A program made the translations under genes and the position numbers. 64,000 nt of DNA from Bacteroidota bacterium (lineage in GTDB: Bacteria; Bacteroidota; Bacteroidia; Bacteroidales; JAADJA01): NCBI GenBank assembly GCA_020444515.1, contig JAHLKX010000002.1, positions 520,146 to 584,145 on the forward strand. Direction: 5' to 3'. Under the pieces are notes generated by a model. That model ran no database searches, was not told the DNA's origin, and saw only the letters and a list, made by a program, of their open reading frames with translations. Shown here one piece after another: positions 5,443-59,739 of the stretch. The first letter of the stretch is position 1. Each line of letters opens with the position of its first letter.

Positions 5443-5455
5443 AACCAAATAATCT

Positions 5456-7339: not shown

Positions 7340-7419
7340 GATTAAATAAATTTTTGGTTAGAAATAAATTAACTGTTTAAATGGTTACTACCAAAGGTAA
7401 GGTATGACTGATGATTAGT

Positions 7420-7465: not shown

Positions 7466-7510
7466 TGGGTTCAGCCGATCTTGTCGGCGGAGTCCAGTAG
7501 CACAAAAAAA

Positions 7511-10822: not shown

Positions 10823-12060
10823 TTTTTATCGATCCAGAAATCAGGTTTAATTAAGGTTCCGCTATTGGCCCGGCAATCGCAACAACTTTTTGGGGGAACT
10901 GCTCGGACATAATTTTTATCGACGACCACATATTTCGGATAATTTCTCCAATCATTCGTTCTGAACATGAAACCATATTCTTTATAGTCGGCTTCGGTTA
11001 ATTCGCATATGGGATAATACATTTGAATAGGAGGCAGAGGCCGGTCCATAAATATCCGCTTTGTATGTATTCCAGCCACCTCAAAATATCCCAGAACGGG
11101 TTCTTCCTCATCGGCTATGTTATAAACATTGCTCTTAATTTGGTAAGGAACCGATGTATACAAACTTGTCCCGGATGTATTTTGATCTTCGATTTCTTTC
11201 CAGTATTTATAGGCTTTTTCGGTGAGGGTAAGTTGATGGATCAATAAACTATAACGTATTGAAAATTCCCTGGTGGCAAAAGACACATAATGAAGCGGAA
11301 AATCTGAAATGACCGGTTGGTTTAATCCTACGGTTGTTCCAGTAAAAATCTCTGTTATCTTCTCTGTTTTCCAGCAAGTTTCCAGTGAGTCGGGTTCAGG
11401 AAAATCATGGAGCTGTCCATCATAATAGAAATATATTTTAAAATCTGCATTAAACATGTAGGTTTCTTCCATCTGCCATCGCAGATAATTGGTATCATTT
11501 GAGGCCATTTCCGTTCCGATGTAAAATTGATATCCGAGGATATCAAAATAGTGATTTACATTATTTCCATATTCTAGATTGGCATAAAGCGTATCTATTT
11601 TAATGGGTTGCTGTAAAAGCTCAAAATCAGAGGCATATGATTTTCCTTCAGGATCATTGAGGGTAATTTTATAATAGCGGCCTGGAATGCCCTGAATGCC
11701 ATTGGCATCGGTACTGTATACGCCCTCTTCAGTTTCAGTAAGTGTTTCTGAATTGCCCAGATTGTCCTGGATCGTTACTTCAAAACCTGAAAGCGGAAAA
11801 TATTTTGGATAAAGCAGCGTGGTAGAGTGTGATAGTTTAACAATATAAGGACCCGGATCAGTTGTGATCCTTCCCTGAACCACCAGTAGATTTTCATATT
11901 TATCACTCAATTCTGGCCAATACATCTCTTCACACGAAAACAGGAAAATAATCAGGAGAAGACTCAGTATATTGACCCACCTTGTCATAAATAGCTTGTC
12001 CTTCAGAAAAAATTTCTTGCTATTCAGGGAATCATAGATCTTTATGTTATTGGTGTGCAT
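10819..12060 (-). CDS. DUF4249-family lipoprotein (copy 2)
   Basis: Lipobox 'IIFLFSCEE', 'LLVVQGRITTDPGPYIVKLSHST' and a C-terminal 'CCDCRANSGTLIKPDFW'. It is a paralog of 12073-13230. The true start may be the ATG at 11988. Confidence 0.7.
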   Translation of the reverse strand: MHTNNIKIYDSLNSKKFFLKDKLFMTRWVNILSLLLIIFLFSCEEMYWPELSDKYENLLVVQGRITTDPGPYIVKLSHSTTLLYPKYFPLSGFEVTIQDNLGNSETLTETEEGVYSTDANGIQGIPGRYYKITLNDPEGKSYASDFELLQQPIKIDTLYANLEYGNNVNHYFDILGYQFYIGTEMASNDTNYLRWQMEETYMFNADFKIYFYYDGQLHDFPEPDSLETCWKTEKITEIFTGTTVGLNQPVISDFPLHYVSFATREFSIRYSLLIHQLTLTEKAYKYWKEIEDQNTSGTSLYTSVPYQIKSNVYNIADEEEPVLGYFEVAGIHTKRIFMDRPLPPIQMYYPICELTEADYKEYGFMFRTNDWRNYPKYVVVDKNYVRAVPPKSCCDCRANSGTLIKPDFWIDKK

Positions 12061-12072
12061 AATTCAAATTAA

Positions 12073-13230
12073 TTAATAACTTGTCCAAAAAGCTGGTTTT
12101 TCAATGGTCCCTCCTCTCAGCCGGCAGTCCATGCATGCTTGCAATGGAAGCGCCATACCCCCTTCGGGGCCTGTTGTTACATAAACAGGCCATGAATCGG
12201 GTGGATATAAATCGATGGTACTCATACTTTCATAATCACCTTCACTCAGCTCACATTTAAAAAAATAGAAAGGCAGGTTGGGTCTTTCAATGAAAATCCT
12301 TGATTTCGATATTCCGGCTGCAGTAAATTGTCCCAATACAGGTTCATCAGGATTACTGAGGCACCTTATATTCCCGATAATTTGAAAAGGTTGTTGCGAG
12401 AATAAACTGCCTTGCTCTTCATTTTGTTCCCGCACCCTGTCCCAGAAAGACCATGACTCCTTTTCCATTGTGTATTGGCTGACTAAAAGGCTATAACGGA
12501 TATAAAGATCCCGGGATTCGGTGTTGACATAATGTAATGGGAAGTGTCTGATAAGGGGCTCATTTAATACATCCATCCGGGATGTAAAGATTTCCGGAAT
12601 TCGCTTGGTCAACCAACAGGTCATCAAAGAATCGGGATTTGGAAAGGGTTTCAGCATGCCTTCAAAATAATACCTGATTTTGAATTCCGTCTGGTATTCA
12701 AACGTTGCATACAAGCTCCACATAAGAAATGTTTCATTGGAGTTTGCCCTTTTGGTGTCAAGGAAAAATCTCAAACCGACAATGTCATGATAAATCTCTT
12801 CTGACGATTGAAATTCCACTTCTGAATAGATACGATCCACATCAACAGGTTCCGGTAGATTTTCAAAAGAAGACAGGTATATTGCCCCATCGGATGTTTG
12901 AATCTCTAACTGGTAAAGGTTTCCAGTTTTTCCCTGAATACCATTCGGATCAGTATGATAGATTCCTTCTTCCATTTCTGTAAGGTATTCGGTATGGCCC
13001 TCGGAATCGCGGATGATTACTTCTGCATCGGTCAGTGGGATCACCCTGGGTTCTTGGAGGTCGGAGGAATAGGATAATTTCACCTGGTAAGGACCTTCAT
13101 CATTGGTGATCATGCCATCTACCACGACCAATTGCTCGTATTTGTCAACCTGCGGATCATATTCTTCAACACAAGCCGTTGTTATCATTAAAACCATGAT
13201 CAAGATTCTATGCAGCTTATTAATTTTCAA
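12073..13230 (-). CDS. DUF4249-family lipoprotein (copy 1)
   Basis: Lipobox 'MITTACVEE', 'LVVVDGMITNDEGPYQVKLSYSS' and a C-terminal 'CMDCRLRGGTIEKPAFW'. It overlaps the upstream receptor gene by 11 nt. Confidence 0.7.
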   Translation of the reverse strand: MKINKLHRILIMVLMITTACVEEYDPQVDKYEQLVVVDGMITNDEGPYQVKLSYSSDLQEPRVIPLTDAEVIIRDSEGHTEYLTEMEEGIYHTDPNGIQGKTGNLYQLEIQTSDGAIYLSSFENLPEPVDVDRIYSEVEFQSSEEIYHDIVGLRFFLDTKRANSNETFLMWSLYATFEYQTEFKIRYYFEGMLKPFPNPDSLMTCWLTKRIPEIFTSRMDVLNEPLIRHFPLHYVNTESRDLYIRYSLLVSQYTMEKESWSFWDRVREQNEEQGSLFSQQPFQIIGNIRCLSNPDEPVLGQFTAAGISKSRIFIERPNLPFYFFKCELSEGDYESMSTIDLYPPDSWPVYVTTGPEGGMALPLQACMDCRLRGGTIEKPAFWTSY

Positions 13231-21400: not shown

Positions 21401-21772
21401 CTCCTGAGTCGCATAACCAAGAGATTTTTTCTCCCGGCTGATACCGAGAGCCGTTACAACGACCCCTTCAAGGTGCATGATATCAGGCTCCATAGCTACA
21501 TCAATGGTAGTCTGGCCTGCAATTGCAATTTCCTGAGAAGCCATTCCAACGTAACGGAAAACGAGTGTTGCAGCATCATCAGAGACTTTAATGGTATATT
21601 TCCCGTCAAGGTCGGTAATGGTACCTGTGGATGTACCTTTTACCAGAACCTGTACACCAGGGATCGGTTGACCATCGTCTGAACTGGTAACCGTACCTTT
21701 AATTTCCCTGTCTTGAGCAAAAATTTGCATCCCTATGAAAATGAATGCAAGAAAAAGGGTAAATTTTCTCAT
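18464..21772 (-). CDS. SusC/RagA-family TonB-linked outer-membrane transporter
   Basis: 1102 aa. CarboxypepD_reg 'IKGTVTSSDDGQPIPGVQVLVKGTSTGTITDLDGKYTIKV', plug 'ILIRGASSITGNNQALIVVDGVPI' and 'IESMNVLKGAAATALYGSRAANGVIIITTKKG', and a C-terminal 'GFTVNLQF'. Confidence 0.9.
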   Translation of the reverse strand: MRKFTLFLAFIFIGMQIFAQDREIKGTVTSSDDGQPIPGVQVLVKGTSTGTITDLDGKYTIKVSDDAATLVFRYVGMASQEIAIAGQTTIDVAMEPDIMHLEGVVVTALGISREKKSLGYATQELSGEEISTVKTNNFINTLSGKAAGVQIKNTGNLGGSSNILIRGASSITGNNQALIVVDGVPINNDVTNTDDQVRGRHGYDFGNSAADINPNDIESMNVLKGAAATALYGSRAANGVIIITTKKGERTMAKKRVYGVNVSSNVTTGFIDKSTFPTYQQDYGAGYGPYYGDEPYTGLEQYDFNGDGATDLVVPTYEDGSFGQKFDPGLSVYQWDAFYPQSPNYRKPTPWVAAGDNGPISFFETPWSFTNSVEVTGANENSNFRLSYSNQDQTGIMPNSHFVRNNVLFNGSYDVTKDVTVTASVNYINNKGKGRNATGYSDNILSSFRQWMQTNVDYQQQKELYEATEENITWNPVSQDNLAPAYWDNPYWTRYKNYTTDGRDRVIGYIQADWQINDYFSTMARFSTDFYSEIQEERKAIGSASGEFGVGTTAGRSDVTSGYSRFNKSFYENNFDFMLRFNKDLSEDFNLSALVGTNIRRSELDQVFASTDGGLIVPDLYALSNSVNPMLAPEETYNKIGVNGIYASASLGYKNFLYLDATIRRDQSSTLPEDNNAYVYPSVSGSFLFSNVLDVDWMDLGKLRLGYAEVGNDAPWGSIVDTYDNNPVFGGTPLYSLPNTKNNAELKPERTTSLEAGLEMYFLNKRLGFDAAFYKTNTVDQIIPIAVSYTTGYSQKYVNAGEIENKGVELMVFGSPVVSENFRWDVTLNWAKNINEVVALAEGVENIQLTRSLQSGITINARVGEPYGTIQGQDFIYDDNGNKVVGEDGYYLKTPTSDVVLGNINPDWTGGINNRFSYKNWAFSFLIDWQQGGSVYSLDMYYGMGTGLYEETSYTNDLGNPVRNTLDNGGGLILEGVTGDVTYNDDGTYTVTNTATNDIRVAGDDYRVFGWSKNPNAAFIYDATYIKLREVVLTYSLPKTTLENTFINGISFSLVGSNLWIISKDLPHADPEASQGAGNVQGWQSGVMPTTRNVGFTVNLQF

Positions 21773-22092
21773 AACATAAGAATTTAGATTAATAAATATG
21801 GATTAGATTGTAATTATTTGAAGAATTCATCTCTTTTATAATTCCCGAAATTTAATTCTCTTTATATTCTTTAGATGTTAAAATGCTCTAAAAGTACCGC
21901 AAAGTAAGGATAACAATTAATTTAAGCAAGAAAAAATTTATTTAAAATTTAGAATTATTTAGTAATTTGTTCACATTCAGAACATCTGACAAAGAACGAC
22001 AAACACAAATATAGGCTAAAATTAACTGAAAATTCTGTAAATACTAATGTTTGCTTGAAACAAAAATAAGAAATATTTTATCTCCAACATAA

Positions 22093-22518
22093 TTAGTGCA
22101 TTTTTCGAAAATAAAGAGCGAAAAGGATTGCCATCGAAATAAATATGCCTGAGGCATACCAATTACCATAACTCATGAGATGGGGAACCATGATAATGAT
22201 CAAAGTGGAAAGGAGGTAAATATAAAATCCGATTTTTCGCATTTTTAACATCAGAATGGCCCCAATGGTTGCTGATGAATAGGTAACAAATCCTGCCAAT
22301 GAGAAAAATAGCACAAAAGACGGCGATACCGCTCTTTCCGGAAAGTAATCTGTCAGCACGTCGGTAATCCAGTTGTTCTGGAAAATGGCCAGCAGAAATA
22401 AAATCGAAAGGAAAACAGAAAACACCATAAAAGCGATGCACAATATGGTGAGTAGAAAAGGCCGGGGTATCCTTTTGTCAATATTTTCTTCAGTTGACGG
22501 TGTTGTATGCATGAGCAA
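22093..22518 (-). CDS. Small 4-TM membrane protein (141 aa), tandem paralog B
   Basis: Four hydrophobic helices. It shares 'M.K..KIGF.IY' with the neighbouring 141-aa ORF and lies 13 nt downstream of it. Confidence 0.6.
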   Translation of the reverse strand: MLMHTTPSTEENIDKRIPRPFLLTILCIAFMVFSVFLSILFLLAIFQNNWITDVLTDYFPERAVSPSFVLFFSLAGFVTYSSATIGAILMLKMRKIGFYIYLLSTLIIIMVPHLMSYGNWYASGIFISMAILFALYFRKMH

Positions 22519-22531
22519 ATAAATGTTTTAA

Positions 22532-22957
22532 TTAAGACATATGTTTGATCTGGCTAAAATATCCTGAAACAAAAGCCAGGGTAATGAAAATTTCAAAGAC
22601 GGAAATCATTGATGAATCGATAAGTGCCATGGGCAATATCAACACAAATATCTGTGCAGCCGTGTAGATATGAAACCCGATCTTTTTTAATTTCCACATC
22701 TGAATAGCACCCATTAATGAGATGAAATAAAGAATGGAACTGGCGATAAAAAACTGGCGACCACCCCTGAAAATATTGACCAGTTCAGGAAACTGGCCTT
22801 TAAAATCGTCCATGGCAATAAGCATTTCATCATAGGAAAGATACACCATCATAAAAACAAAAGATGCCATACCACTCCCAATAAAAGTGAGGGTGCAAAG
22901 AAAGGTGAGCAATCCGGGTCTCACCTTTCTATTAATGCTATGCTGATTTTCTTCCAT
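22532..22957 (-). CDS. Small 4-TM membrane protein (141 aa), tandem paralog A
   Basis: Four hydrophobic helices, including 'MWKLKKIGFHIY'. It lies 9 nt downstream of the ammonia-lyase gene. Confidence 0.6.
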   Translation of the reverse strand: MEENQHSINRKVRPGLLTFLCTLTFIGSGMASFVFMMVYLSYDEMLIAMDDFKGQFPELVNIFRGGRQFFIASSILYFISLMGAIQMWKLKKIGFHIYTAAQIFVLILPMALIDSSMISVFEIFITLAFVSGYFSQIKHMS

Positions 22958-42964: not shown

Positions 42965-43050
42965 TTTTTTGCCCAGATATTTAATAACATTGTATGTATC
43001 ATACAAGAGGCTTAAAACCCTGCCTATTCATTAATTTTAATTTATTAGTC

Positions 43051-44928
43051 ATGAAGAAAATTTTACTTTTTACGCTGGCAGCGTCAATTGGTATTGTCTG
43101 CCTGGCGCAACAACGTGTTTTGTTGCCCCCAACATTAAAGAATTTGTCTGCCGAAAGGCAAAATCCACAACTTGAATCCGGACCGCAAAGTCATGCGGCC
43201 CTTCCTTCTCAGGATAAGATATGGCCCCCGGAGGAAACATTGGTTGGAACTTCTTTTTTCGATTTGCAAAGCAATTCAGCCATGCAAAACCGCCTCTATT
43301 TATTTGATGATGGTACCATTGGGGCCACCTTCACTTTCGGTAACCTTTATGCCAATTTTGATGATCGCGGAACCGGTTACAATTATTTTAATGGTGACCA
43401 ATGGTTCGATCCTCCAACAGTCCGTATTGAATCACAACGAACAGGCTGGCCGGCATATGCCCCTTTTGGAGAAGATGGTGAGATCGTGGTTTCACACCTG
43501 GCCAGCGCCGTGGATGAAGGTCTTTTATTTAATAAGCGAGATCAAAAAGGCACTGGCGACTGGAATGAATTTCTTTTCCAGGGCCCTGTGGGTTTTGAAC
43601 CCCTGGCCTGGCCCCGGATGACTACTGCCGGTATCGACCATTCCATCATTCACCTGTTTACCCTTACCCTGCCTTCAGCCAATGGCGGTACACCTTACAT
43701 GGGACAGGACGGAGCATTGTTGTATTCCCGTTCCTTTGACGGCGGAACCACCTGGGATCCCCAGAATCTTCTTTTTGAAGATCTGAACGTGGATAATTAT
43801 GTTGCATTTAGTGGTGATACTTACGAAATTCAGGCTCAGGACGACAATGTGGCCATCCTGATCGGGGAGCCATGGATCGACCTCATCCTGTTGAAATCTA
43901 CGGATGGCGGTGATACCTGGACCAATACCCTGGTATGGGAAAATCCTTATCCAATGTGGACTACGGGCACGGTTACCGATACATTCTATTGTGTGGATGG
44001 TGCTCACAGCCTGGCCTTCGACCAGGAAGGTATGGTGCACATTGCCTTTGGCATCAATCGGGCATTGTCCGTAGATGGAACGGCACAGTCGTGGTTCCCG
44101 TTTGTGGATGGTGTGGGTTACTGGAACGAAAACATGCCCGTTTTTTCCAACGACATCAATGCATTGAATCCATATGGTGAAGAAGGATCTGAGTTGATTG
44201 AAGATGTTAATCTGATTGGCTGGACCCAGGATGTTGATGGGGATGGTGAGATCACATTTGTGGGCAACGGAACTGATAACATCGGGACTTATCAACTCGG
44301 ACTATCAAGTATGCCACAAATCCTGGTGGACGAAAGCAACTGGGTGTTCATAGTCTGGTCATCGGTTACAGAAACCTATGATAATAGCCAAAAGAATTTC
44401 AGGCATATCTGGTGCAGGGCTTCTTCCGATGGTGGTGCTAACTGGTCAGGATTTCATGATCTGACTGAAGATTTCCTTCATCTGTTTGATGAGTGTGTAT
44501 GGCCTGCCATTGCTGCCAATTCGGATGAGAATTTTTACCTGATCTATCAGTATGACTCCGAGCCCGGCCTGGCAGTGAGGTTTGATGAGCACGGATATGT
44601 TGAAAATTCTATTAATTTTATGGAGGTCACAAAACTTGAAGTGGGTATTGAGAATACAAAAGAAGCTGATGCTTTTTCTGTTTCCCAAAATATTCCCAAT
44701 CCGTTTATGGAAGATACACGGATCATTGTTCATCTTGAGTCTGCACATCAACTTCAGTTATGGGTAACCAATATGCTTGGCCAGGAGGTTTTTTATCGGG
44801 ATGAAGGACTTATTCAATCCGGGAAAACCGAACTGCTTATCCCTCGTGGCGCTCTGGTTAAGGGTGTATATTTTTATACCGTGAGAGCAGGACAAAGAAG
44901 TGTTACCAGGAAGATGATTGTTGAATAG
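43051..44928 (+). CDS. Secreted Asp-box beta-propeller-like protein with T9SS type-A C-terminal domain (paralog 3 of 4)
   Basis: The ATG at 43051 gives the signal peptide MKKILLFTLAASIGIVCLAQ. Asp-boxes 'SFDGGTTWD', 'STDGGDTWTN' and 'SSDGGANWS'. C-terminal domain 'VSQNIPNPFMEDTRI...GVYFYTVRAGQRSVTRKMIVE'. Confidence 0.8.
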   Translation: MKKILLFTLAASIGIVCLAQQRVLLPPTLKNLSAERQNPQLESGPQSHAALPSQDKIWPPEETLVGTSFFDLQSNSAMQNRLYLFDDGTIGATFTFGNLYANFDDRGTGYNYFNGDQWFDPPTVRIESQRTGWPAYAPFGEDGEIVVSHLASAVDEGLLFNKRDQKGTGDWNEFLFQGPVGFEPLAWPRMTTAGIDHSIIHLFTLTLPSANGGTPYMGQDGALLYSRSFDGGTTWDPQNLLFEDLNVDNYVAFSGDTYEIQAQDDNVAILIGEPWIDLILLKSTDGGDTWTNTLVWENPYPMWTTGTVTDTFYCVDGAHSLAFDQEGMVHIAFGINRALSVDGTAQSWFPFVDGVGYWNENMPVFSNDINALNPYGEEGSELIEDVNLIGWTQDVDGDGEITFVGNGTDNIGTYQLGLSSMPQILVDESNWVFIVWSSVTETYDNSQKNFRHIWCRASSDGGANWSGFHDLTEDFLHLFDECVWPAIAANSDENFYLIYQYDSEPGLAVRFDEHGYVENSINFMEVTKLEVGIENTKEADAFSVSQNIPNPFMEDTRIIVHLESAHQLQLWVTNMLGQEVFYRDEGLIQSGKTELLIPRGALVKGVYFYTVRAGQRSVTRKMIVE

Positions 44929-51500: not shown

Positions 51501-54500
51501 ATTGTTACATCCGTGAGTGGAAATTATGAATTCAGTGTTTTAAATGGGGGCTTGTTAACAGCAGCAAATGCTGTCTTTCAATACATGGATGCCTCGGGTG
51601 TGAATATTTATCCAACGGGAGTATTATTTGATATCAATCCATTTAATCAATGTGCATTCCTGAATGGAGAAGCAGGAGGAACATTGTTGCAAATTAATAA
51701 TGATCAGGATCTGGTTTTCAACACCGTTAATTTCTCAACAAACACCTGGGGTGGGACTTATAATGTTACCAAAAATAACAATGAAGGATCGATCAATTTT
51801 ATTAACTATTTAGGTGATTTTAGTGGAGAAACCTATGAAAATGATCCTTACAATAGGATAACATGGGGCAATCCGGTGCCAGGTATCTGGACTGGAGCCG
51901 TGAGTCAGATATGGAATTTGGCAGGAAACTGGGAAAATAGTTTAAAACCAACTGCAACTGATGATGTGTATATTCCTGCTGGAACTCCCAATGATCCCTG
52001 GGTATCACAGGCAGACCAGGAATGCAATAACATCATCATTGATCCGGGTGCCAGTTTGAGAATTTACGATGAAATACTTACTGTTCACGGAGATATGTAT
52101 GTTCATGGAGAGCTCAAAATGGATCATGTTTCTGGTGTGTTAAATGCAGGTGATGGCTTTGGTGATAAAATAGTTTGGGAGGCCGGATCAACAGATAACA
52201 TTACACTGGGTACGATCAATGTATATGGGGACTGGTACTTTAATAATGGTACAAGCGCACAGTTGGGAGTCGGAAATGTGGTTAATTTTTATGGCACCAA
52301 TCGTTCGTATATTTATTGCGATGATGATGATGCCGCCTTTGGAAATATAACTATAAATAAAACAGCCTCACCAAAAGACTTTGTTTATGTCCCTGCAAAT
52401 AATAGTCTCAGGGTGTTGGAAGATTTATATGTTTTTGATGGAATTCTGGATCTGAAAGAAAATAGCTATTGTAATGTTGGAAATGAATTCGTTATCATCA
52501 GCGGTTGTACGCTAAATTCTCTGGGTACCCCCGGGAACGAGGCTACCATTTCAGGATTTCCAAATTATTGTATGTTGGATATCGATAATGGGGCTACCAT
52601 CAGTGCTGAATATACGATTTTTGAATACCTCGAGGGCAATGGACTTTCAATAAACCCAACGGCTACCATTGATCCGCTCCATCCGCTTAATCATTGTACT
52701 TTCAGAGAGAGTCCAGCAGGAGGGAAATTATTAACCATTGCCAATGATCAGATACTGACAATTGATGGTGCAACATTTCCTCACAATTACTGGAGTGGTT
52801 CGAACAATGTATCAAAAATAAATGATGCAGGCCACATCACCTTTACCAATGTCGATGGTGGTTTTGTGGGATCTAATTATGAAAATGATCCCTATAATAG
52901 GGTTGATTGGCCGGGGGTGGTTCCCGGTATCTGGACAGGTGCAGGAAACAGCTTGTGGAATGTTTTAGTGAACTGGAAGTATGAATTAAGACCCACCGCA
53001 ACAGATGATGTAATTATTCCGGCCGGTACACCGCATGATCCAAGAGTGACTTTACTGCCTCAGGAATGCAATAGTATTACGGTTGAAGCGGGTGCATCCC
53101 TCGAAATTTATAATCAAATATTGAATGTTCACGGCGATTTGATCATTCACGGTGAGTTGATCATGAATCATGCAGGCAGTGAATTGTATGCGGGTGATTC
53201 CTTTGGTGATGAAATCAGCTGGGAACCAGGCTCTAAAGCCGATGTGAATTATGGTACCATTTACGTTTATGGAAACTGGAATTTTAAAGATGGTACCGAT
53301 GCCCAGTTTGGTTGGGGTAATACTGTTGTATTTAATGGAGGTAATTTTTCAACGATTTATTGTGATGACGATAATGCAACATTTGGAAATCTGACCATCA
53401 ATAAACCCACTCCACCCAAAGATTTTGTTACAGTGTCCACCAATCATGTTTTAAGGGTTGCTGAAGACTTTTATATTGGAGATGGGAGTTTAAGGATATT
53501 TGAAAATACCACATTTACAGTTGGGAATGAATTGTATGTTGATGACGGTGCAATGCTGATTTCAATGGGTACGGCGGGTAACAATGCCTTAATAAGCGGA
53601 ACTTCCAATTATTGTTTATTGGAAATCGCGAGTGGTGCGACCATTAGTGCGGAATATACGGATTTTCAATTTCTAGAAGGCCAAGGACTTACGATCAATC
53701 CGGGTGCAATCATTGATCCACTGCACCCCTTAAATTATTGTTCATTTAGTGAAAGCCCGGCCGGAGGAACTTTGTTGACCATTGAGAATGACCAGGTAGT
53801 GACCATTGATGGGGTGAACTTTCCACCCAACAGCTGGGGTGGAGCCAATAATGTTACCAAATCATTTGATCAGGGACAGGTTATATTTACCAATGTGCAG
53901 GGAACCTTTGTAGGAGCGGATTTTGAAAATGATCCCAATGACCGGATTGACTGGCCGGGGATCGTGGCGGGTATATGGACAGGCGCTGTAAGTACCATTT
54001 GGGATGATCCCGCAAACTGGGCCTATCATTTGAAACCGGATGTCTCAGATGATGTTGTGATCCCGGCAGGTACAGCTCACGATTGCTGGGTTACCAATGC
54101 TGATCAGGAATGCAACTCAGTGACCATTGAAAGTGGAGCAACCCTGGTCGTTTACGATAAAGTTTTAACGGTTTATAGCGACATCATTATAAACGGACAA
54201 TTAAAAATGGATCATCCATCAGGTGTTTTAAATGCAGGTGATGGATTTGGTGACCTTGTTTCATGGGAGCCGGGTTCCTCTGCGGCTGTTACTGCTGGAA
54301 CCATTAATGTATATGGTGACTGGTATTTCAATAATGGAATTGATGCCCAGTTTGGATCCGGAAATACAGTGGTTTTTATGGGTACCAACCGTTCTCATAT
54401 TTACTGGGATGATTTTGATGCCGAATTTGGAAATCTGATCGTTAATAAATCAGCTTCACCCAAAGACTATGTTTATATTGCGGCTTATGATTCAATATTG

Positions 54501-55763
54501 ATCGCAGAAGATGTATACATCATGGATGGTGTTCTTGAAATTGGTTACGGAGCCCGGTTTTATGTAGGGAATGAGTTTTATGTAGAAGATGGAGGAAGCC
54601 TGATGGCCATGGGATTGCCGGGAAGGGACATCGTTATTTCCGGATGGCCGGACCACTGTTTGATGGAAATTGCTGATGGAGGGAAGATCGGTGCCCAGTA
54701 TACCGTTTTTGATCACCTGGGATATTATGGATTAACCATTAATCCGGGAGCAACAATTGACCCGTCCTATGCATTTTCGAATTGCACATTCCAGGAAGGA
54801 TTAGCAGGTGGAAATGTATTAACAATTAACAACGACCAGGATTTGACCATTTACAATGCCCATTTCCCATCCAATACCTGGGGTGGCGATTATAATGTTT
54901 CAAAAAGTGCCTCATCCGGAGATATTAACTTCATGGATGCCTCAGGGGTGTTCAGGGGTGAAGATTATGAAAATGATCCCAATAACCTGATCCACTGGGG
55001 ACTCCGCAATATAGACCTGAACCTCAAGGTTTATCTGGAAGGTCCTTATCTTCCGGCATCAGGTGGATTGATGACGACCGAATTGAATACAGGTGGATAT
55101 ATTCCTTTGGCTCATCCATATAATCCTTCGTTACCTTATTACGATATTTCCAATCCGGCTGATTTGAAATGGCTTTATACAGGGACGGAGAGTGTAACCA
55201 GTATACCCATGAATGCAGTGGATTGGGTCCTGGTTCAGTTGCGCGATGCCACCTCAGCTGCCACTGCCACCTCAGCTACCATACTTGAAACACAGGCTGC
55301 CTTCCTGATGAACGATGGTTCTATCGTTGGTCTGGATGGTGTTTCGCCTATTCATTTTTTCCTGGCTTATTCCAATAATCTGTATGTGGTCATATTCCAC
55401 CGCAACCACCTGGCTATTATCTCTAATAATCCGTTGGTGGAATCTGGCGGCTTGTATTCACATGATTTTTCATCATCCGAAATGCAAGCGCTGGGTGGCG
55501 CTAATGGACATAAGGAATTAGAACCGGGTGTCTGGGGGATGGTCTCCTCCGATGGCAATGGAAATGGTCTGATACAAAATACGGATGAGACCGCCGTTTG
55601 GAAAACGGACCTTGGAAGCTCAGGCTACCGGGGTGGTGATTTTAATATGAACGGCCTCACCCAGAATACCGATGAAACCAATTACTGGAAAGTAAATTTA
55701 GGTTCCGGAGGGCAAACACCCGGGAAAAACAATACCGGGTACGAAAGCCAGGTGCCAGATTAA
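45573..55763 (+). CDS. Giant (3396 aa) secreted protein: gingipain-like C25 cysteine peptidase head, beta-helix-like repeat body, non-T9SS C-terminal module
   Basis: N-terminal hydrophobic signal. Propeptide-like 'ELTLLTIYPYQYNPVQKRLTVYPDLKITVSF'. C25 motifs 'YLLFIGDAENIPP' and 'YADYDDPMDYVADFGYGRL'. The catalytic His/Cys context 'FRAHGSWSGWGD...NRPFIWSITCQSGWF' has the His codon at 47127 and the Cys codon at 47226. A GGAGG lies 5 nt before the ATG. Confidence 0.85.
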   Translation: MKKFTLKTQIPRSLLIPMYTFAIAFLCFWSIDLVSQTNMDIVNVNVTNERRLDISINAETNLQFVEKEYGDRNVYKNFWVNGASKVAPGNPNVHSYARWILIPNGTKINITFSHGLPVDYENIDLAPAQPEPYDNENAPRPAFTKNEVVYSRDADFPGVFAETDGIKRKRGQELTLLTIYPYQYNPVQKRLTVYPDLKITVSFSGTIHPIPPNLKTKNLEYSLKSMAINGEAVLAAEVSAGTTSNGDNINYSNGCDLLIITDPAFENAANTLASWKIRKGIYTWVYNTSVTGNTFTQIENFIDNAYETWSPAPEYLLFIGDAENIPPGYILYEDENDLGTDIFYADYDDPMDYVADFGYGRLSVDNVADADSVVARIIRYERTPSTNPNYYNQILNASCFQDGENGVEGEPDELPDHYANRRFCKTSEDVRNYLMSQGFLSQREYVAYNRVNYDEIFPENWMDLNQSWSGGIFENDNPPDGGDPIPAELLKPGFPWDGSTAGISAAFNAGKFFAIFRAHGSWSGWGDPDFHSWNVDALNNGENRPFIWSITCQSGWFDNETDNASYGSSNSQECFAEHWLRHNTGGSCGILAAARNSSSGKNDRLIWGMMDAIWPGFLTWSMDPYGGPDPIYRMGDVINYGKGYMATKYPGYETTTIALFHWFGDPTSEMWTSQPNELTNALVTSPINIGTSSITVQVTPAVENMLVAICMENSDDIFGTAYTNSSGIATVNLNHSITLEDVIYVTITKHNYKPYEFEAGWNIQGIWSGSISSDWHNANNWTPNQVPDASNSVLIPNGCSNYPVIVSPVAECENLLIAQNASVTIGNTQLHVNGDLTVFGELAMTTSSSNLQVTGTVSWEDGSSANITNGSAMIVAYYDWVFKTGSNVHLDNGFVNFSGNLSQAIKCNSTDSYFNHLIIAKDENKYMYYSGSSTEDMVIKGNLFIDAGTRLRHYSDNKMILYGLFDCDGSHYFASGTFVFNGPATSFSSNTNSHFNNLEINSTGKIDFLTDVEIRGDLTINAGSLDINGHVISIEGDWTNNVGVSAFYGTNGTVVFTGDVNQYITEDETINIIELDKTGGSLIINNFDTEVTCSQFNWTQGRLEMLNGEFTAFDLTDNGIFGDYYMEGGTINLMNYDGFVDLNGDLTIMGGFFNVYGGIDDSFWSYAGNASLVMTDGILDFHDAGINVFDSPTFSFSESVSGGIIKTTGDFNCERSDFTITNCELRMYGPENAFISQVEGCQFDDVRFEKGAVDNSTSFITQSFKKESLQLKSRKKKGLNSLQNSKNGSKSNLVSAASDLQIMGTLRVSDGEFDLNGNKVTVVDDVIVSADFTMNSPDDELWVGDMLKWQSGAYGNITDGLIKFKGLWSFEDGSNVLISTGNSAIAIGTVNQNINCYDDNSGFGNLILNQQSTGKTISSAGSQPIRVTGDLTIDSDNTLNLNNDDMVVSGQVFTYISSSLIVENGGSFTAENDFDLFGSAHLIDGNITVSNDFYLNTSGNLIIDGGSFIMDRNSVEQFQVLNGYLEMNGGLLEATFNGIIFGQNTTLTMSGGEIATGWDFSAYQDNLFQPAGGAVRMIGIATASINLNETCYFHDLIIDKPVSTEADISQTILVKNDLKIGSGIFNTAGFDLMVENDVVIEPDGVLNPGNNTVTVRGDWSNNHGDAGFLENNSITVFVGNETSHIRTDETFYDLQVDKNYSPYTYLWSDSNYTVNVWRLLINTCSYRLDINSTLNVSGNLVIGEDCNLFAPSSGDSYINIQGNWINQNTSGIPWVYGFLYGTSTVTFNGIEDQFVESDNGMQDFYNLVIDKTNGDFYPLADIEIYNDLNINNGIWGMDSPGQTFSFYGDVNIASNGEFYDFTSTVNIFGSDQQSFTNLGPWTSYVGSLNIAMTSSSADNLPVFTILGKMQCSGSVNVNNGNFDLNSQTVECLENFTINEDGKVTATGQSKIAMGDGSALSVSGGELYIVGGAPPNPIVTSVSGNYEFSVLNGGLLTAANAVFQYMDASGVNIYPTGVLFDINPFNQCAFLNGEAGGTLLQINNDQDLVFNTVNFSTNTWGGTYNVTKNNNEGSINFINYLGDFSGETYENDPYNRITWGNPVPGIWTGAVSQIWNLAGNWENSLKPTATDDVYIPAGTPNDPWVSQADQECNNIIIDPGASLRIYDEILTVHGDMYVHGELKMDHVSGVLNAGDGFGDKIVWEAGSTDNITLGTINVYGDWYFNNGTSAQLGVGNVVNFYGTNRSYIYCDDDDAAFGNITINKTASPKDFVYVPANNSLRVLEDLYVFDGILDLKENSYCNVGNEFVIISGCTLNSLGTPGNEATISGFPNYCMLDIDNGATISAEYTIFEYLEGNGLSINPTATIDPLHPLNHCTFRESPAGGKLLTIANDQILTIDGATFPHNYWSGSNNVSKINDAGHITFTNVDGGFVGSNYENDPYNRVDWPGVVPGIWTGAGNSLWNVLVNWKYELRPTATDDVIIPAGTPHDPRVTLLPQECNSITVEAGASLEIYNQILNVHGDLIIHGELIMNHAGSELYAGDSFGDEISWEPGSKADVNYGTIYVYGNWNFKDGTDAQFGWGNTVVFNGGNFSTIYCDDDNATFGNLTINKPTPPKDFVTVSTNHVLRVAEDFYIGDGSLRIFENTTFTVGNELYVDDGAMLISMGTAGNNALISGTSNYCLLEIASGATISAEYTDFQFLEGQGLTINPGAIIDPLHPLNYCSFSESPAGGTLLTIENDQVVTIDGVNFPPNSWGGANNVTKSFDQGQVIFTNVQGTFVGADFENDPNDRIDWPGIVAGIWTGAVSTIWDDPANWAYHLKPDVSDDVVIPAGTAHDCWVTNADQECNSVTIESGATLVVYDKVLTVYSDIIINGQLKMDHPSGVLNAGDGFGDLVSWEPGSSAAVTAGTINVYGDWYFNNGIDAQFGSGNTVVFMGTNRSHIYWDDFDAEFGNLIVNKSASPKDYVYIAAYDSILIAEDVYIMDGVLEIGYGARFYVGNEFYVEDGGSLMAMGLPGRDIVISGWPDHCLMEIADGGKIGAQYTVFDHLGYYGLTINPGATIDPSYAFSNCTFQEGLAGGNVLTINNDQDLTIYNAHFPSNTWGGDYNVSKSASSGDINFMDASGVFRGEDYENDPNNLIHWGLRNIDLNLKVYLEGPYLPASGGLMTTELNTGGYIPLAHPYNPSLPYYDISNPADLKWLYTGTESVTSIPMNAVDWVLVQLRDATSAATATSATILETQAAFLMNDGSIVGLDGVSPIHFFLAYSNNLYVVIFHRNHLAIISNNPLVESGGLYSHDFSSSEMQALGGANGHKELEPGVWGMVSSDGNGNGLIQNTDETAVWKTDLGSSGYRGGDFNMNGLTQNTDETNYWKVNLGSGGQTPGKNNTGYESQVPD
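51834..54965 (+). repeat. Three in-frame tandem coding repeats of exactly 1044 nt (348 codons) inside the giant gene
   Basis: The unit landmark 'YENDPYNR(I/V)(T/D)W' or 'FENDPNDRIDW' recurs at 51834, 52878, 53922 and 54966. A partial unit (the last ~120 aa) precedes 51834. Confidence 0.9.
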
Positions 55764-55785
55764 GAATGAACAACTGTTGATTAAA

Positions 55786-55814
55786 GGCTGCTCTGATAGA
55801 GCGGTCTTTTTTTT
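55786..55814 (+). terminator. Rho-independent terminator of the giant gene
   Basis: ggctgctc-tgata-gagcggtc (8 bp including two G-U pairs) followed by T8. Confidence 0.8.
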
Positions 55815-55894
55815 GGATTTTGCTCTGGGTGCATTGAAATGCAAAAAATAGTTACACCCGCGTTGCAAACGCAGGCGAGAAACGGGGCGACCTT

Positions 55895-56025
55895 TATTTT
55901 TACTTTATTACCTCAATCACTAAATCGCTCGAGCGTTCCCAAATAGATAATGTGAAAGCATTACTCGTGCATTTTTTACAAGGCATCAGTCACGCGAATA
56001 TTCAGTCCTGGGCTTGAAGACTGGC
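55895..56025. repeat. Structured intergenic repeat, copy A (one ~55-nt core)
   Basis: It shares blocks with 56958-57183: 'cctcaatcac', 'atcgctcgagcgttcccaaatagataatgtgaaagc...', 'cgaatattcag' and 'aagactggc'. It is GC-richer than the adjacent ORF. Confidence 0.7.
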
Positions 56026-56049
56026 AACAATTGGGGCCAGTCACTTTTG

Positions 56050-56949
56050 TTAAATTCCCTTGAGTGTCATAATTATTCCTTGTTTCAAGGATGTAATATC
56101 TTCTTGGCCTTTTATATCTAGTTCCTCAATTATTTCAATAATATTTTCAATTTTTGTTTCTTTCTTCAATAATTTCGTAATTATTTGGCTTAGCATATTT
56201 ATTGTCCTGTCTTCATTTCTTGAGATATTTAATGCTGGTACATTTATTACATAACCATCTTTATCCTCAAACTCTAAATCATATCTTTCTTTTCCATTTT
56301 GTCCAATTACCATAACAATCAGTCCATCTTCAATCCAGGGTGGTAAATAAAAATCGCTAACTTTTAAAATATAAATTTCAACTGGCATCCCTAAATCATA
56401 CCCTAAAACCGCAATATAACCTTCTCTATTAATATCAAATCTAAATATTTTACATTTGATTTTTTTTGGTCTATTGTATTTTTTATTTTTTTTTGGAATA
56501 AACTGGTCGAGTCGTTTACCTACTTTTAAAACTAATTCATCTGGATTTCTGAAGTAATCTATTGTGTGCCTTTGCTTTAGTTTTTTTTTGAAATCTTCAA
56601 GTTTCTTGTAATTTTCAAAGTCTATAAATTTTGGTAATATTAAGCTTTCACTTTCATCAATTAAATAGATAAATATTTCTTTGTTCTTTTCATAAGCAAC
56701 TTCATATTCAATTTCTGTAAATGATTTTTTTGTTTTTCTATCGGTGCTGCCGTATCTCATACCTATAATTCCAAGGTATATATCACATTCGTAAGCAAAT
56801 TCAATACAAGTTTCCAATGGAGTAGTTGTTCTTGCGCCAAATTCTTCCATCCCTCTTACTATTAATTTAAAATTTTTAAGCAATTCCCAAATAGCTTTTC
56901 GATGAGGTATTAGATCAATGTAAGTTGATGATACAAATATCTTTTTCAT
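56050..56949 (-). CDS. DUF4062 (TIR-like) domain protein with uncharacterised C-terminal domain
   Basis: 'MKKIFVSSTYIDLIPHRKAIWELL...ECDIYLGIIGMRYGS...FTEIEYEVAYEKNKEIFIYLID' matches the DUF4062 signature as I remember it. The coding sequence is very AT-rich compared with the flanks. Confidence 0.7.
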   Translation of the reverse strand: MKKIFVSSTYIDLIPHRKAIWELLKNFKLIVRGMEEFGARTTTPLETCIEFAYECDIYLGIIGMRYGSTDRKTKKSFTEIEYEVAYEKNKEIFIYLIDESESLILPKFIDFENYKKLEDFKKKLKQRHTIDYFRNPDELVLKVGKRLDQFIPKKNKKYNRPKKIKCKIFRFDINREGYIAVLGYDLGMPVEIYILKVSDFYLPPWIEDGLIVMVIGQNGKERYDLEFEDKDGYVINVPALNISRNEDRTINMLSQIITKLLKKETKIENIIEIIEELDIKGQEDITSLKQGIIMTLKGI

Positions 56950-56957
56950 TTATTGCT

Positions 56958-57183
56958 ATAACTTTACTTTGTCTTTAATTGATTTCTTCCTCAATCCACG
57001 AGTGTTCATTTTAAGCAAGAGAGCTTGCATCACTCTTGCGTTGATAACAAGGCACCAGTCACAACAGCACACGAGCCTTGATCGCGCGAGTGTTTCTGCA
57101 AAGATAGTGCGAAAGCGTCACTCGTGCATTAAAACACGAGGCTTCAGTCGCACGAATATTCAGCCCTGAGCTGTAAGACTGGC
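56958..57183. repeat. Structured intergenic repeat, copy B (two ~55-nt cores)
   Basis: Cores at about 57022-57072 and 57107-57160. The hairpin at 57107-57153 has stems gtgcg/cgcac, aagc/gctt and ctcgtg/cacgag. The repeat covers the last 8 codons and the stop of the 57160-57657 ORF. Confidence 0.7.
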
Positions 57184-57657
57184 GCCTGATAGCGTATTAA
57201 ATATAATCTTTTTTGATTTTTCCTCAAAACCGACTAGGTCATTTTTGCTCCAGCCTAAGCGGTTCACCTCTCTAATTTCGGCAATGAACTTTTTATTATC
57301 ATAAAAAGTCAGGGCATTTATAATATTCCCGATGCCGTAACTTTTCTTTTTAAAAAATACTTTTAGGTCTTCGTAAGGAATGCTCTGCTGGGATTTTAAA
57401 AATGTAAACTGGTAATAGCTTAGAATTAGTTTTTTATTTGCGTCATCAAAAAAAACTTCGAAAATGAGCCTGGTATTCTTTCTAAACAACAATAGTATTA
57501 TAAGTGAAACAAGGGAAATTTCAATTTTAATCCAATTTTGGACAAACAACTCCAGATTGTAAAATGCCAGAAAAGAATTCACAATTAGGATGTAATAAAC
57601 TTCTCCATTAATCCGGTTAATCCAACTTATTTTTTTAAGATAATTATTACGTTCCAT
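57160..57657 (-). CDS. Hypothetical 2-TM membrane protein with small soluble C-terminal domain
   Basis: 165 aa with TM helices 'VYYILIVNSFLAFYNLELFV' and 'IEISLVSLIILLLF'. AT-rich, and on the same strand as the DUF4062 gene. Confidence 0.55.
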   Translation of the reverse strand: MERNNYLKKISWINRINGEVYYILIVNSFLAFYNLELFVQNWIKIEISLVSLIILLLFRKNTRLIFEVFFDDANKKLILSYYQFTFLKSQQSIPYEDLKVFFKKKSYGIGNIINALTFYDNKKFIAEIREVNRLGWSKNDLVGFEEKSKKIIFNTLSGASLTAQG

Positions 57658-57797
57658 AAATTACAAATCACACCGTTCTCGTCATCTTGTATAACGAGGA
57701 CGAAATTTACATAGAATTTTTCAGTTACATTGTAAATTGTTGTTTATAAAACCTTCGCATATCTTAAGGTGCAGGAGCACATTATTTTTATTTTTCG

Positions 57798-57805
57798 TAA
57801 TTTTG
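57798..57805 (+). promoter_or_regulatory. Candidate Bacteroidota -7 promoter box (TAnnTTTG)
   Basis: 'taattttg', 45 nt upstream of the ATG at 57850. Confidence 0.3.
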
Positions 57806-57849
57806 GAAATCGAATAATAGCATTTCAATTCAATTAAAAATCAATTACT

Positions 57850-59739
57850 ATGAAAAAACTACTACTTATTTGTTTTTCACTCAGTTTTGTGTTTTCAATT
57901 TATGCCCAGCAGCGCACAGTGCCAACCAAAGCCATGCGCGACTTTGCGGTACGCAAAGGACAACCCGTTCACTTTGAAACCGGATTTGAAAAAACAGCCG
58001 GAATCCCTGCCTTGAAAAGTGTGACAGAAGTTGAGGAAGAGATCATTGGTGCCACCCGTTATGACCTGCAGTCTAATGCGAGTTGCCAAAACCGTTTGCA
58101 TGTTTTTGAAGATGGTACCATAGGTGCCACCTGGACCATGGGTTTTGAGGATCCTGGTTTTTCTGATCGTGGTACCGGTTATAATTATTTTGATGGATCA
58201 GAATGGGGCGAAATACCAACACAACATATTGAAAGTTTGCGCACTGGCTGGCCTTCATACGCACCTTATGGTGAGAATGGAGAGCTAGTTGTTTCGCATG
58301 ATTTTGGCCCGGCTCCTGCAGGTGATCCCGGAACGCTTCGTATAAATATTAGAGATACTAAAGGCAGTGGGGTATGGGCTGAAGATGTGTTTTATGGTCC
58401 GGATATCGAAATATCATGGCCACGAGCCACAACCTCGGGAATTGATAATAGTGTAATCCAGATGCTGGCCATCACCTGGCCCACACCCAATGGTGGTCCT
58501 GTTTATGAAGGCTTGGATGGAGCCTTGCTTTATTCACGCTCTGCAGATGGCGGTGCTACCTGGGATCCTCAAAATATGATCCTTGAAGGAATTTCATCTG
58601 ATTATTATTTTGGATTTTCAGCAGATGATTATGATTGGGCCGCATCACAAGGAGATAACATTGCTTTCCTTGCTGGAAATTCATGGTATGACTTCATCTT
58701 GATGAAATCGACGGATGGTGGTGATACCTGGGAAAAAACGGTGATCTGGGAGCATCCCTATCCATTCTTCAGCACGACAACCCCTATTGAAACCGATACT
58801 TTCTATTGTGTTGACGGCGCTCACCACCTGGCTTTCGATTCGCAAGGTAAGGTACACGTTGTCTTTGGAATCAACCGGGCTTATGCAGACGCAGCCGGAA
58901 CATATTGGTTCCCCCTTGTGGATGGTGTGGGCTACTGGAATGAAGATATGCCAACGTTCAGCAATGATCTCAATGCACTGAATCCATATGGTGAAGCAGG
59001 CACTGAACTTGTAGAAGATGAAAGCCTGATTGGTTGGTGGCAGGACCTGAATAACAATGGTGAATGGGATATCCTGGGAGAAGTTGGTGCTTATTACATT
59101 AGTGCATCCGGAATGCCGCAGATCGTAATTGATGATATGGACTATATTTATCTCGTATTTTCAGGGGTAACTGAGTCTTATAATAACGGTGCACAGGATT
59201 TCCGCCACATTTGGGCAAGGGGTTCCTGGGGTGAAGGCGTTTGGGGTGATTTTATTGATCTTACCGGCGATCTGATCCACATCTTTGATGAATGTGTATT
59301 TCCATCAGCTGCTCCGGCAACGGATGATTATTTCTACCTTATGTTCCAGACGGATGCTGAACCAGGACTGGCTGTTCGTGGTGACGAAGATCCTTATACA
59401 GATAATAATATGTATTTTATGAAAGTGAGCCGCAACGACCTTATTCCGGTTGGTGTTGAAGAATTATCCGAGCCCATTACCGCTGAGGGTGTCTCTCAAA
59501 ATATGCCCAATCCGTTTACTGGAACTTCATGGGTAAACATAGAGGTTCAGAAAACCTGTGATCTGAGTCTTGAGGTGACCAACATTACCGGACAGGTTGT
59601 ATATGCCATTGCCCCAAAAGAATTTCAGGCTGGATCTTACCGGCTTCCCATTCACGCCGAAAACCTGACCAAAGGTGTTTATTTTTACACTGTGAAAGCC
59701 GGGGATACTTCAGTAACAAAGAAAATGATTGTTGAATAG
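57850..59739 (+). CDS. Secreted Asp-box beta-propeller-like protein with T9SS type-A C-terminal domain (paralog 4 of 4)
   Basis: Signal peptide MKKLLLICFSLSFVFSIYAQ. Asp-boxes 'SADGGATWD' and 'STDGGDTWEK'. C-terminal domain 'VSQNMPNPFTGTSWV...GVYFYTVKAGDTSVTKKMIVE'. Confidence 0.8.
   Translation: MKKLLLICFSLSFVFSIYAQQRTVPTKAMRDFAVRKGQPVHFETGFEKTAGIPALKSVTEVEEEIIGATRYDLQSNASCQNRLHVFEDGTIGATWTMGFEDPGFSDRGTGYNYFDGSEWGEIPTQHIESLRTGWPSYAPYGENGELVVSHDFGPAPAGDPGTLRINIRDTKGSGVWAEDVFYGPDIEISWPRATTSGIDNSVIQMLAITWPTPNGGPVYEGLDGALLYSRSADGGATWDPQNMILEGISSDYYFGFSADDYDWAASQGDNIAFLAGNSWYDFILMKSTDGGDTWEKTVIWEHPYPFFSTTTPIETDTFYCVDGAHHLAFDSQGKVHVVFGINRAYADAAGTYWFPLVDGVGYWNEDMPTFSNDLNALNPYGEAGTELVEDESLIGWWQDLNNNGEWDILGEVGAYYISASGMPQIVIDDMDYIYLVFSGVTESYNNGAQDFRHIWARGSWGEGVWGDFIDLTGDLIHIFDECVFPSAAPATDDYFYLMFQTDAEPGLAVRGDEDPYTDNNMYFMKVSRNDLIPVGVEELSEPITAEGVSQNMPNPFTGTSWVNIEVQKTCDLSLEVTNITGQVVYAIAPKEFQAGSYRLPIHAENLTKGVYFYTVKAGDTSVTKKMIVE

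Follow-up and report, generated by a model that had tools for sequence, protein, structure and literature searches.

The DUF4062 domain, also designated NIR, has been described in three preprints as an NAD+-hydrolysing (NADase) effector in anti-phage defence (bioRxiv 10.64898/2026.05.01.722283, 10.64898/2026.06.25.731849 and 10.64898/2026.09.04.749371). The systems concerned are Swarozyc, represented by KpSwz (Osinski et al. 2026, bioRxiv 10.64898/2026.05.01.722283; PDB 10wc, 11cq and 11cv), Evangelion, with Eva01 and related proteins (Ibarra-Chavez et al. 2026, bioRxiv 10.64898/2026.06.25.731849), and the NIR-effector systems NIR-Avs2, Vulcan and Vesta (Le Mouellic et al. 2026, bioRxiv 10.64898/2026.09.04.749371). 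Their architectures comprise a single-gene core with an auxiliary region (Swarozyc, Evangelion and Vulcan), Avs proteins, and the two-gene Vesta system. A catalytic glutamate is needed in every described DUF4062 system (KpSwz E97, PsAvs2 E108, Eva01 E87), and the DUF4062/NIR domain of human TEP1 is also an NADase effector (2026 preprints). According to the Swarozyc preprint, TIR-like NADases, KpSwz included, are regulated by assembly state, and the auxiliary domain of KpSwz is required for defence and binds the phage portal (bioRxiv 10.64898/2026.05.01.722283). The present study concerns an open reading frame (ORF1) of a Bacteroidota bacterium, located in a 64,000-nt stretch of contig JAHLKX010000002.1 (assembly GCA_020444515.1, positions 520,146 to 584,145), hereafter the window. 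ORF1 has a DUF4062 core joined to an auxiliary (AUX) domain which profile comparisons relate to the C-terminal domain found in ribonucleotide reductases of class II.

ORF1 and its neighbour ORF2 were found at the positions, on the minus strand and with the lengths (299 and 165 amino acids, aa) that had been given in a preliminary description made from the window sequence alone. The assignment of ORF1 to the TIR-like DUF4062 proteins, also made there, was borne out. ORF1 matched Pfam PF13271 (DUF4062) over residues 3-85 with a score of 81.6 bits (cut-off 24.7) and an E-value of 4.9e-23. Sixteen full-length homologues were recovered at 39-54% identity, and the profile of this family matched the DUF4062 chain of KpSwz (10wc_A; E = 9.5e-14, residues 3-175) and also a chain of human TEP1 (11gz_A). 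With ORF1 as a single sequence the KpSwz match had an E-value of 8.6e-6, the identity between the cores being low. The AlphaFold2 model of ORF1, with a predicted local distance difference test score (pLDDT) of 86, contained a beta-alpha-beta core in residues 1-150, and Foldseek matched this domain to the TIR domain of RPS4 (TM 0.60), to nucleoside 2'-deoxyribosyltransferase (NDT) and to SPARTA TIR-APAZ. NCBIfam returned noise only for ORF1 and ORF2, and PHROGs returned two families of unknown function which covered the N-terminal domain of ORF1 only.

Residues E81 and Y82 were invariant across the 16 family members, and the N-terminal aromatic residue F5 was also present and invariant. In the KpSwz chain, the position aligned to E81 (position 84) is an alanine. 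Since this chain is described as the 15-C E97A mutant (bioRxiv 10.64898/2026.05.01.722283), E81 is probably the counterpart of the catalytic E97 of KpSwz, a correspondence of residue numbering that we infer. By analogy with its family, ORF1 would hydrolyse NAD+ and provoke abortive infection.

No Pfam family covers the C-terminal half of ORF1, and the preliminary description had left the last ~140 aa without assignment; these were placed by profile search. Residues 151-299 of 12 family members were made into a profile and searched with hmmsearch against 1.84 billion cluster representatives; 963 proteins matched at E <= 1e-3, of which 368 also passed E <= 1e-10, with reductases reaching E-values down to ~1e-32. 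The architecture counts were taken from the best 150 of these 963 matches. Among these 150, 63 were ribonucleotide reductases in which the match followed directly after the Ribonuc_red_lgC barrel, 22 were DUF4062 proteins and three were TIR_2 proteins, the remainder being fragments or having miscellaneous N-termini. The AUX-linked reductases belonged to class II, with T. maritima NrdJ as the best match of the barrel; the crystallised T. maritima class II reductase chain (644 aa) ends before the AUX-type domain. In BLASTP comparisons the AUX domain of ORF1 and the reductase tails shared 28-32% identity over ~140 aa, with E-values of 1e-13 to 1e-21. Judged by these comparisons, the AUX domain is a homologue of the domain, unannotated as yet, at the C-terminus of class II (B12-dependent) ribonucleotide reductases.

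Structure prediction of the C-terminal part had been proposed as a check. An AlphaFold2 model of AUX alone (pLDDT 87, pTM 0.82) consisted of six strands followed by three helices. No PDB neighbour of AUX was found by sequence, and the best Foldseek match in the PDB had an E-value of 0.028 and a TM of 0.15. Of the top three Foldseek matches in BFVD (probability 0.99-1.0), two are annotated as phage ribonucleotide reductases, one of them B12-dependent, and the third is unnamed. Positions near-invariant in both the effector-linked and the reductase-linked groups were R160, P161, W178, G183, P189, E191, D224 and G232, which suggests a conserved interface or ligand site. The AUX domain is presumed to be a sensor or oligomerisation module.

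The equivalent region of the reductases falls within the 'CRD' (Loderer et al. 2017, PMC5704485), as its non-cysteine part, and has also been called 'IscU-like' (Burnim et al. 2022, bioRxiv 10.1101/2022.04.23.489257). The reductase CRD, the Cys-rich C-terminal region of NrdJd, mediates dATP- or dGTP-induced formation of tetramers and hexamers (PMC5704485). Ribonucleotide reductase is not mentioned in any of the three DUF4062 preprints. In the class II reductases themselves, a folded domain of ~140 aa lies between the barrel and the zinc-finger tail and has no Pfam family (P0067, 850 aa, residues 673-809; also P0068, P0070, P0088 and others); a dedicated family model for it looks worthwhile. 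One relative of the AUX domain (P0098) had a weak Pfam TSCPD match over its helical part (E = 0.004), and a literature search on TSCPD returned nothing relevant.

The effector-linked and reductase-linked copies differed in several respects. Among the best 150 of the 963 matches, a six-cysteine zinc-finger tail followed the domain in 48 of 63 reductases and in none of the 22 DUF4062-linked copies; ORF1 itself terminates at the last AUX helix, without a Cys-rich tail or a redox cysteine pair. In a tree built by neighbour joining, the 58 reductase-linked copies all fell in a single clade, which also held 26 copies of unclassified architecture (fragments and other N-termini) but no DUF4062- or TIR-linked copy. 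Mean identity was 29% among the effector-linked copies, compared with 50% among the reductase-linked ones. The three TIR_2 fusions to an AUX-type domain (P0080, P0185 and P0086) include one annotated from a metagenome-assembled genome (MAG) of a Promethearchaeia (Asgard) archaeon. At the level of sequence, the existence of both TIR_2 and DUF4062 fusions points to the swapping of effectors on a common sensor. An AUX domain apparently derived from ribonucleotide reductase, and common to DUF4062 and TIR_2 proteins, is what is new here.

In annotated phages and plasmids, no full-length or AUX match was found, and the plasmids matched the N-terminal core only. Among 215 plasmid DUF4062 genes, of which 195 were staphylococcal, the match covered the first ~150 residues of ORF1 or fewer (~100 in most), and none of the 215 covered the AUX domain. 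Two unannotated phage records matched part of AUX. In an unannotated record of a 634-kb uncultured jumbo phage (LR745206.1), the stretch encoded at 412356-412580 was 35% identical to the beta-sheet part of AUX.

The composition of ORF1 was foreign and AT-rich, as had been proposed, and the profiles of GC content and tetranucleotides both peaked in deviation at this gene. The GC content was 0.274 for ORF1 and 0.319 for ORF2, relative to a window mean of 0.417 (900-nt windows, standard deviation (sd) 0.037). The minimum over the 64 kb (0.273) was at position 56076, and ORF1 lay ~3.9 sd under the mean; locally the GC content dropped to 0.26-0.31, in surroundings of ~0.42. The tetranucleotide distance was also the highest of the window in the ORF1 region, at 0.48 against a mean of 0.284 (sd 0.041; ~4.8 sd).

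An empty site was available for comparison. A 22-kb contig from the Joint Genome Institute (L008) is syntenic with the window at ~80% nucleotide identity and carries one of the two homologues of ORF2. In blastn alignments, window positions 60987-57205 corresponded to L008 6703-10465, spanning the adjacent 629-aa paralogue and ORF2 to its last shared codon, and window positions 55850-54048 corresponded to L008 10507-12313, spanning the 3' end of the giant (3396-aa) gene and its terminator. The junctions were read by eye from the aligned sequences. The inserted segment between them (Table 1) contained both repeats (A and B), the partial copy B', ORF1 and nothing more. L008 lacked ORF1 and both repeats and carried ORF2 at the same syntenic position. 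The comparison with a relative proposed in the preliminary description found the ORF1 part of the presumed island missing and the ORF2 part conserved.

The insertion point was exactly at the stop codon of ORF2. The ORF2 homologues P0057 and P0058, from L008 and a further relative (L009), end in ...KKI-stop, and ORF2 of the window continues for 14 codons; the stop was replaced and 14 residues (IFNTLSGASLTAQG) were added to an otherwise conserved protein. These last 14 codons (57163-57204) and the stop codon derive from the inserted DNA. As the protein ends in ...KKI-stop in both L008 and L009, the short form is ancestral and the segment was gained in the lineage of the window.

The repeats that bracket ORF1 had been described as structured. 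A direct repeat of ~100 nt was indeed present, its two copies being 77% identical over 103 nt; its secondary structure was not significant on either strand (fold z-scores of -1.6 to +1.1), and no covariation was seen with RNAalifold (-2.85 kcal/mol). An identity of the repeats as integron attC sites or as a structured RNA was rejected for these reasons. The repeats may be remnants of a vehicle or features of the donor genome. The insertion could also be read as an integron-like or REP/IS200-IS605-like cassette, with the repeats as recombination sites and ORF1 as the cargo, which would be compatible with a single promoter-proximal gene lying between ~100-nt direct repeats of GC content 0.45-0.51 around a cargo of 0.27, and with the clean empty site in L008. 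This manner of arrival is unlikely, however, as no attC-like or other significant hairpin was found in the repeats, they matched no Rfam family, and no further copy was present in the window, in L008 or at the other ORF1-family loci. Five exact-pattern scans of public genome, metagenome and viral contig collections also returned no copy, which is weak evidence as such scans are blind to diverged copies. In addition, no integrase or transposase was among the Pfam families listed for the other ORFs of the window (25 of 35 shown), and the copies, at only 77% identity, are not a fresh duplication. This reading concerns the arrival of the gene only and does not compete with a function in defence.

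The ORF1 subfamily was found in Bacteroidota and Ignavibacteriota; 16 homologues are of full length, and the cluster representatives number at least 22. Full-length relatives came from Draconibacterium, Carboxylicivirga, Lutibacter, other Bacteroidales MAGs and an Ignavibacteriales MAG. No neighbouring gene was conserved across ten loci of the family, and several loci carried genes connected with defence. At one locus (L015) a type IIG restriction-modification gene shared 4 nt with the beginning of the ORF1 homologue; at another (L013) PDC-M35A and PDC-M35B lay directly upstream; at a third (L010) a type IIG fragment and an E1-E2-like gene were nearby. At a locus from an uncultured Lutibacter (L007, CANLSE010000004.1), a TIR_2 protein and a 1240-aa DUF4062-STAND protein were encoded near the ORF1 homologue, and this island therefore holds two DUF4062 architectures. 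The pair, a Zn-ribbon/TIR_2 protein of 513 aa and the NLR-like DUF4062-STAND protein, occupies positions 9343-12906 of that locus, ~2.4 kb downstream of the homologue. Further neighbours of ORF1 relatives included SoFic, CapP, PD-Lambda-2, HigB, integrases and HTH_17, and one locus (L003) had no obvious defence neighbour.

Nmad2 and Nmad3 were found near the homologue P0007 at locus L005. There, P0007 is followed after 4 nt by an unannotated 195-aa gene, and then by a PRAI gene, Nmad2 and Nmad3 (4263-7503); this gene set may be a lineage-specific operon. The closest DUF4062 cores, at ~50% identity to that of ORF1 (P0017-P0055), carried at least three other unrelated types of C-terminal domain. 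One large group of these consists of 23 proteins of 313-466 aa. Pfam annotates none of these other C-terminal domains. Such shuffling of effector and sensor among the DUF4062 relatives of ORF1, as read from their sequences, is typical of defence genes.

The statement in the preliminary description that the locus matches no named system is outdated, since a DUF4062 core with an auxiliary region is the architecture of Swarozyc and Evangelion. The type of system is already described, and it is the auxiliary domain of ORF1 that differs. Like Swarozyc, ORF1 is a single gene whose product (~300-340 aa) begins with a DUF4062 TIR-like NADase domain (putative in ORF1) that has a catalytic glutamate (E97 in KpSwz, putatively E81 in ORF1), and continues through a helical connector into an auxiliary domain at the C-terminus. 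Unlike in Swarozyc, nothing suggests a phage-portal trigger for ORF1; its AUX profile (residues 151-299) found no KpSwz chain at E <= 10, and the full-length profile alignment with KpSwz stopped at ORF1 residue 175. With Evangelion, ORF1 shares the single-gene core with an auxiliary region, F5 and E81-Y82, and horizontal mobility. It differs in being chromosomal in Bacteroidota and not plasmid-borne, and in that the Q/W/E motif reads P-L-E, a comparison made with the motif as published and not with the Eva sequences. The staphylococcal plasmid DUF4062 genes, presumably of the Eva01 group, matched ORF1 over residues 3-102 only, at ~33% identity.

With the NIR systems, ORF1 would have in common the effector domain and the logic of an N-terminal NADase and a C-terminal sensor. 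VstA of Vesta is comparable in being a small NIR protein whose C-terminal domain is uncharacterised and could be a binding site for a ligand. Unlike NIR-Avs2 and Vulcan, ORF1 lacks a STAND NTPase as well as HEAT repeats, and unlike Vesta, in which the NIR protein VstA is paired with the alkaline phosphatase VstB, it has no alkaline-phosphatase partner, such a domain being absent also from ORF2. Compared with the class II reductase tails, the AUX domain appears homologous along its whole ~140 aa and is similar in predicted structure to the tails of phage B12-dependent reductases; it differs in being joined to a putative NADase and not to the reductase barrel, in the absence of the six-cysteine zinc finger, and in that the effector-linked copies form a fast-evolving group of their own.

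We consider it probable that ORF1 was acquired horizontally and acts on its own as an anti-phage gene of the DUF4062/NIR class, because of the DUF4062 match, the invariant E81-Y82, the precedent of related NADases, the insertion, the foreign composition, the defence neighbours of its relatives and the modular AUX domain. The preliminary description had proposed a horizontally acquired defence cassette, of which this retains the foreign ORF1, absent from L008 and with relatives in defence islands, and leaves out ORF2. In the proposed mechanism, the N-terminal TIR-like domain (residues 1-150, with E81) would hydrolyse NAD+ on activation and lead to growth arrest or abortive infection. The C-terminal domain of 150 aa would have been recruited from the lineage of the class II reductase C-terminal domain, and AUX would keep the enzyme silent until an infection signal leads to its assembly into an active oligomer. 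ORF1 would have arrived as a 1.33-kb insertion exactly at the ORF2 stop, with no role for ORF2. Candidate triggers may be deoxypurine nucleotides or a reductase tail, from phage or host, and the data discriminate none of them. We infer both the defence phenotype of ORF1 and the nature of its trigger.

Several observations weigh against a defence function. The window is no defence island; its 35 other ORFs encode housekeeping, transport or type IX secretion system (T9SS) cargo proteins, and no integrase or transposase was found among their listed families, as stated above. The search of PADLOC-DB 2.0.0 (2023) that had been proposed as a check gave no match for ORF1 or ORF2. The Q/W/E motif of the Evangelion cores reads P44-L45-E46 in ORF1, and the defence role of the ORF1 subfamily is drawn by analogy from the wider DUF4062 family. 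The kinship of DUF4062 to nucleoside 2'-deoxyribosyltransferases, together with the reductase-derived domain, is also compatible with a role in deoxynucleotide handling.

Such a role was considered in the form of an enzyme or regulator of deoxynucleotide metabolism, in which an NDT/TIR-like N-glycosidase would act on nucleosides or nucleotides under the control of the domain borrowed from reductase. The Foldseek matches to nucleoside 2'-deoxyribosyltransferases, the homology of AUX to the class II reductase tail and the dATP/dGTP-induced oligomerisation mediated by the Cys-rich C-terminal region of NrdJd, which contains the AUX-type domain (PMC5704485), would all agree with this. A metabolic function is nevertheless quite unlikely, given that the gene is patchily distributed, being present or absent between close relatives, that it is foreign in composition, and that its relatives adjoin restriction-modification, PDC-M35, TIR and STAND genes. 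It also fits poorly with the exchange of the AUX-type domain onto TIR_2, with the fast divergence of the effector-linked copies (29% mean identity, as opposed to 50%), and with the fact that all DUF4062 proteins tested so far are NADases in defence (2026 preprints).

Within the reading of ORF1 as an anti-phage gene, the reductase C-terminal domain might have been co-opted as an immune sensor on DUF4062/TIR NADases, which would be a new class of trigger. This proposal is tentative, and we regard it as possible but doubtful. Two routes of sensing could be envisaged. By the first, AUX would co-assemble with the homologous tail of a B12-dependent reductase that is encoded or hijacked by the phage, and NAD+ depletion would follow. 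By the second, AUX would respond, like the dATP/dGTP-driven reductase tail, to the surge of deoxypurine nucleotides during phage replication, with the same outcome.

ORF2 had been described as a membrane protein with two transmembrane helices and as the partner of ORF1. One strong hydrophobic segment was found (approximately residues 44-59), with a weaker one at approximately residues 20-40; two helices in ORF2 are plausible, not proven. ORF2 had no family match in Pfam, NCBIfam or PADLOC, and had only two homologues among 5.8 billion clusters, at 78-81% identity and both in close relatives. The ratio of nonsynonymous to synonymous divergence (dN/dS) was 0.10-0.12 and the synonymous divergence (dS) 1.0-1.2, the values for the adjacent 629-aa gene being 0.095 and 1.19. 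ORF2 is on these values a real gene under purifying selection, and since both measures match those of the adjacent core paralogue it was inherited vertically with its neighbours. No ORF2-like gene was found by tblastn in the ten loci encoding full-length ORF1 relatives.

The mobile unit is the 1.33-kb insertion with ORF1 as its sole gene, because L008 keeps ORF2 without ORF1, ORF2 evolves like its neighbours, and ORF2 is absent beside the relatives of ORF1. From the same comparisons, ORF2 is a resident gene, neither cargo nor partner of ORF1. A two-gene mobile defence cassette, in which ORF1 would be a TIR-like NADase or signal generator and ORF2 a two-helix membrane effector or anchor, might be suggested by the shared strand, the 210-nt gap with no terminator-like site predicted in it, the AT-richness of both genes and the hydrophobic segments of ORF2, but it is highly improbable in view of the ORF2 found without ORF1 at the same position in L008, its two homologues confined to close relatives, its absence from the ten loci, its divergence like that of the core paralogue, and an insertion that changed the C-terminus of ORF2 and did not bring the gene in.

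ORF1 and ORF2 are flanked by the 3396-aa gene, which stops at 55763, and by the gene of the 629-aa Por_Secre_tail protein, whose ATG is at 57850. The right-junction hairpin, formerly that of ORF2, would now end the transcripts of ORF1. The two genes may be transcribed together by accident, because they are on the same strand, no terminator-like site lies between them, and the old ORF2 hairpin is now 3' of ORF1. The window is core chromosome, with genes for sigma-54, LptF/G, HisRS, an AcrB-type efflux pump, SusC/D and T9SS cargo. An Rfam scan of positions 55500-58000 (E <= 1) gave just a chance REN-SRE match, and no tRNA or tmRNA was found. Exact copies of the ORF1 and ORF2 proteins came solely from short metagenomic contigs whose sequence equals that of the window.

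Some further features of the window were recorded. The T9SS-cargo paralogues at 42994-44925 and 57850-59739 shared 74-77% nucleotide identity over several stretches at a constant offset of ~14.81 kb, and the giant gene between them contained internal repeats with a period of 1044 nt (51726-54989). In the patch that ranks second in the window for AT-richness (21551-22676), two paralogous genes in tandem (22096-22957) encode small multi-pass membrane proteins of 139 and 141 aa. Another AT-rich patch (7951-8701) covered an OMP_b-brl_2 gene and an intergenic region.

Table 1. Positions of the features of the ORF1 locus, counted from the first letter of the window.
Feature	Position	Strand	Description
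Terminator-like hairpin	55783-55809	plus	3' end of the 3396-aa gene
Terminator-like hairpin, right junction	55855-55877	minus	Mostly inside the stretch conserved in L008
Inserted segment	55875-57204	none	1,330 bp; 21 bp in its place in L008
Direct repeat copy A	55924-56025	none	Downstream of ORF1
ORF1	56050-56949	minus	299 aa; DUF4062 (NIR, TIR-like) domain and C-terminal class II ribonucleotide reductase-like domain
ORF1 residues 151-299, AUX domain	56053-56499	minus	Six beta-strands, three helices (predicted)
ORF1 residues 1-150	56500-56949	minus	TIR-like alpha/beta domain and connecting helices; putative NAD+ hydrolase
E81-Y82 codons	56704-56709	minus	Putative catalytic Glu-Tyr pair
Partial third copy B'	57027-57062	none	36 nt, central part of the repeat
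Direct repeat copy B	57081-57183	none	Upstream of ORF1 (minus strand); overlaps the new 3' end of ORF2
ORF2	57160-57657	minus	165 aa; small membrane protein

The locus is a clean natural case of a single gene, probably for defence, dropped into a core chromosome, with an empty site for comparison. The triggers of most DUF4062/NIR proteins lie in variable auxiliary domains, and the ORF1 subfamily suggests sensing via nucleotide pools or via reductase mimicry. The homology of the AUX domain also links this family to an open question in the reductases, namely the role of their long C-terminal 'IscU-like' domain. If the reading of AUX as an immune sensor were true, it would provide the first functional handle on this uncharacterised reductase domain.

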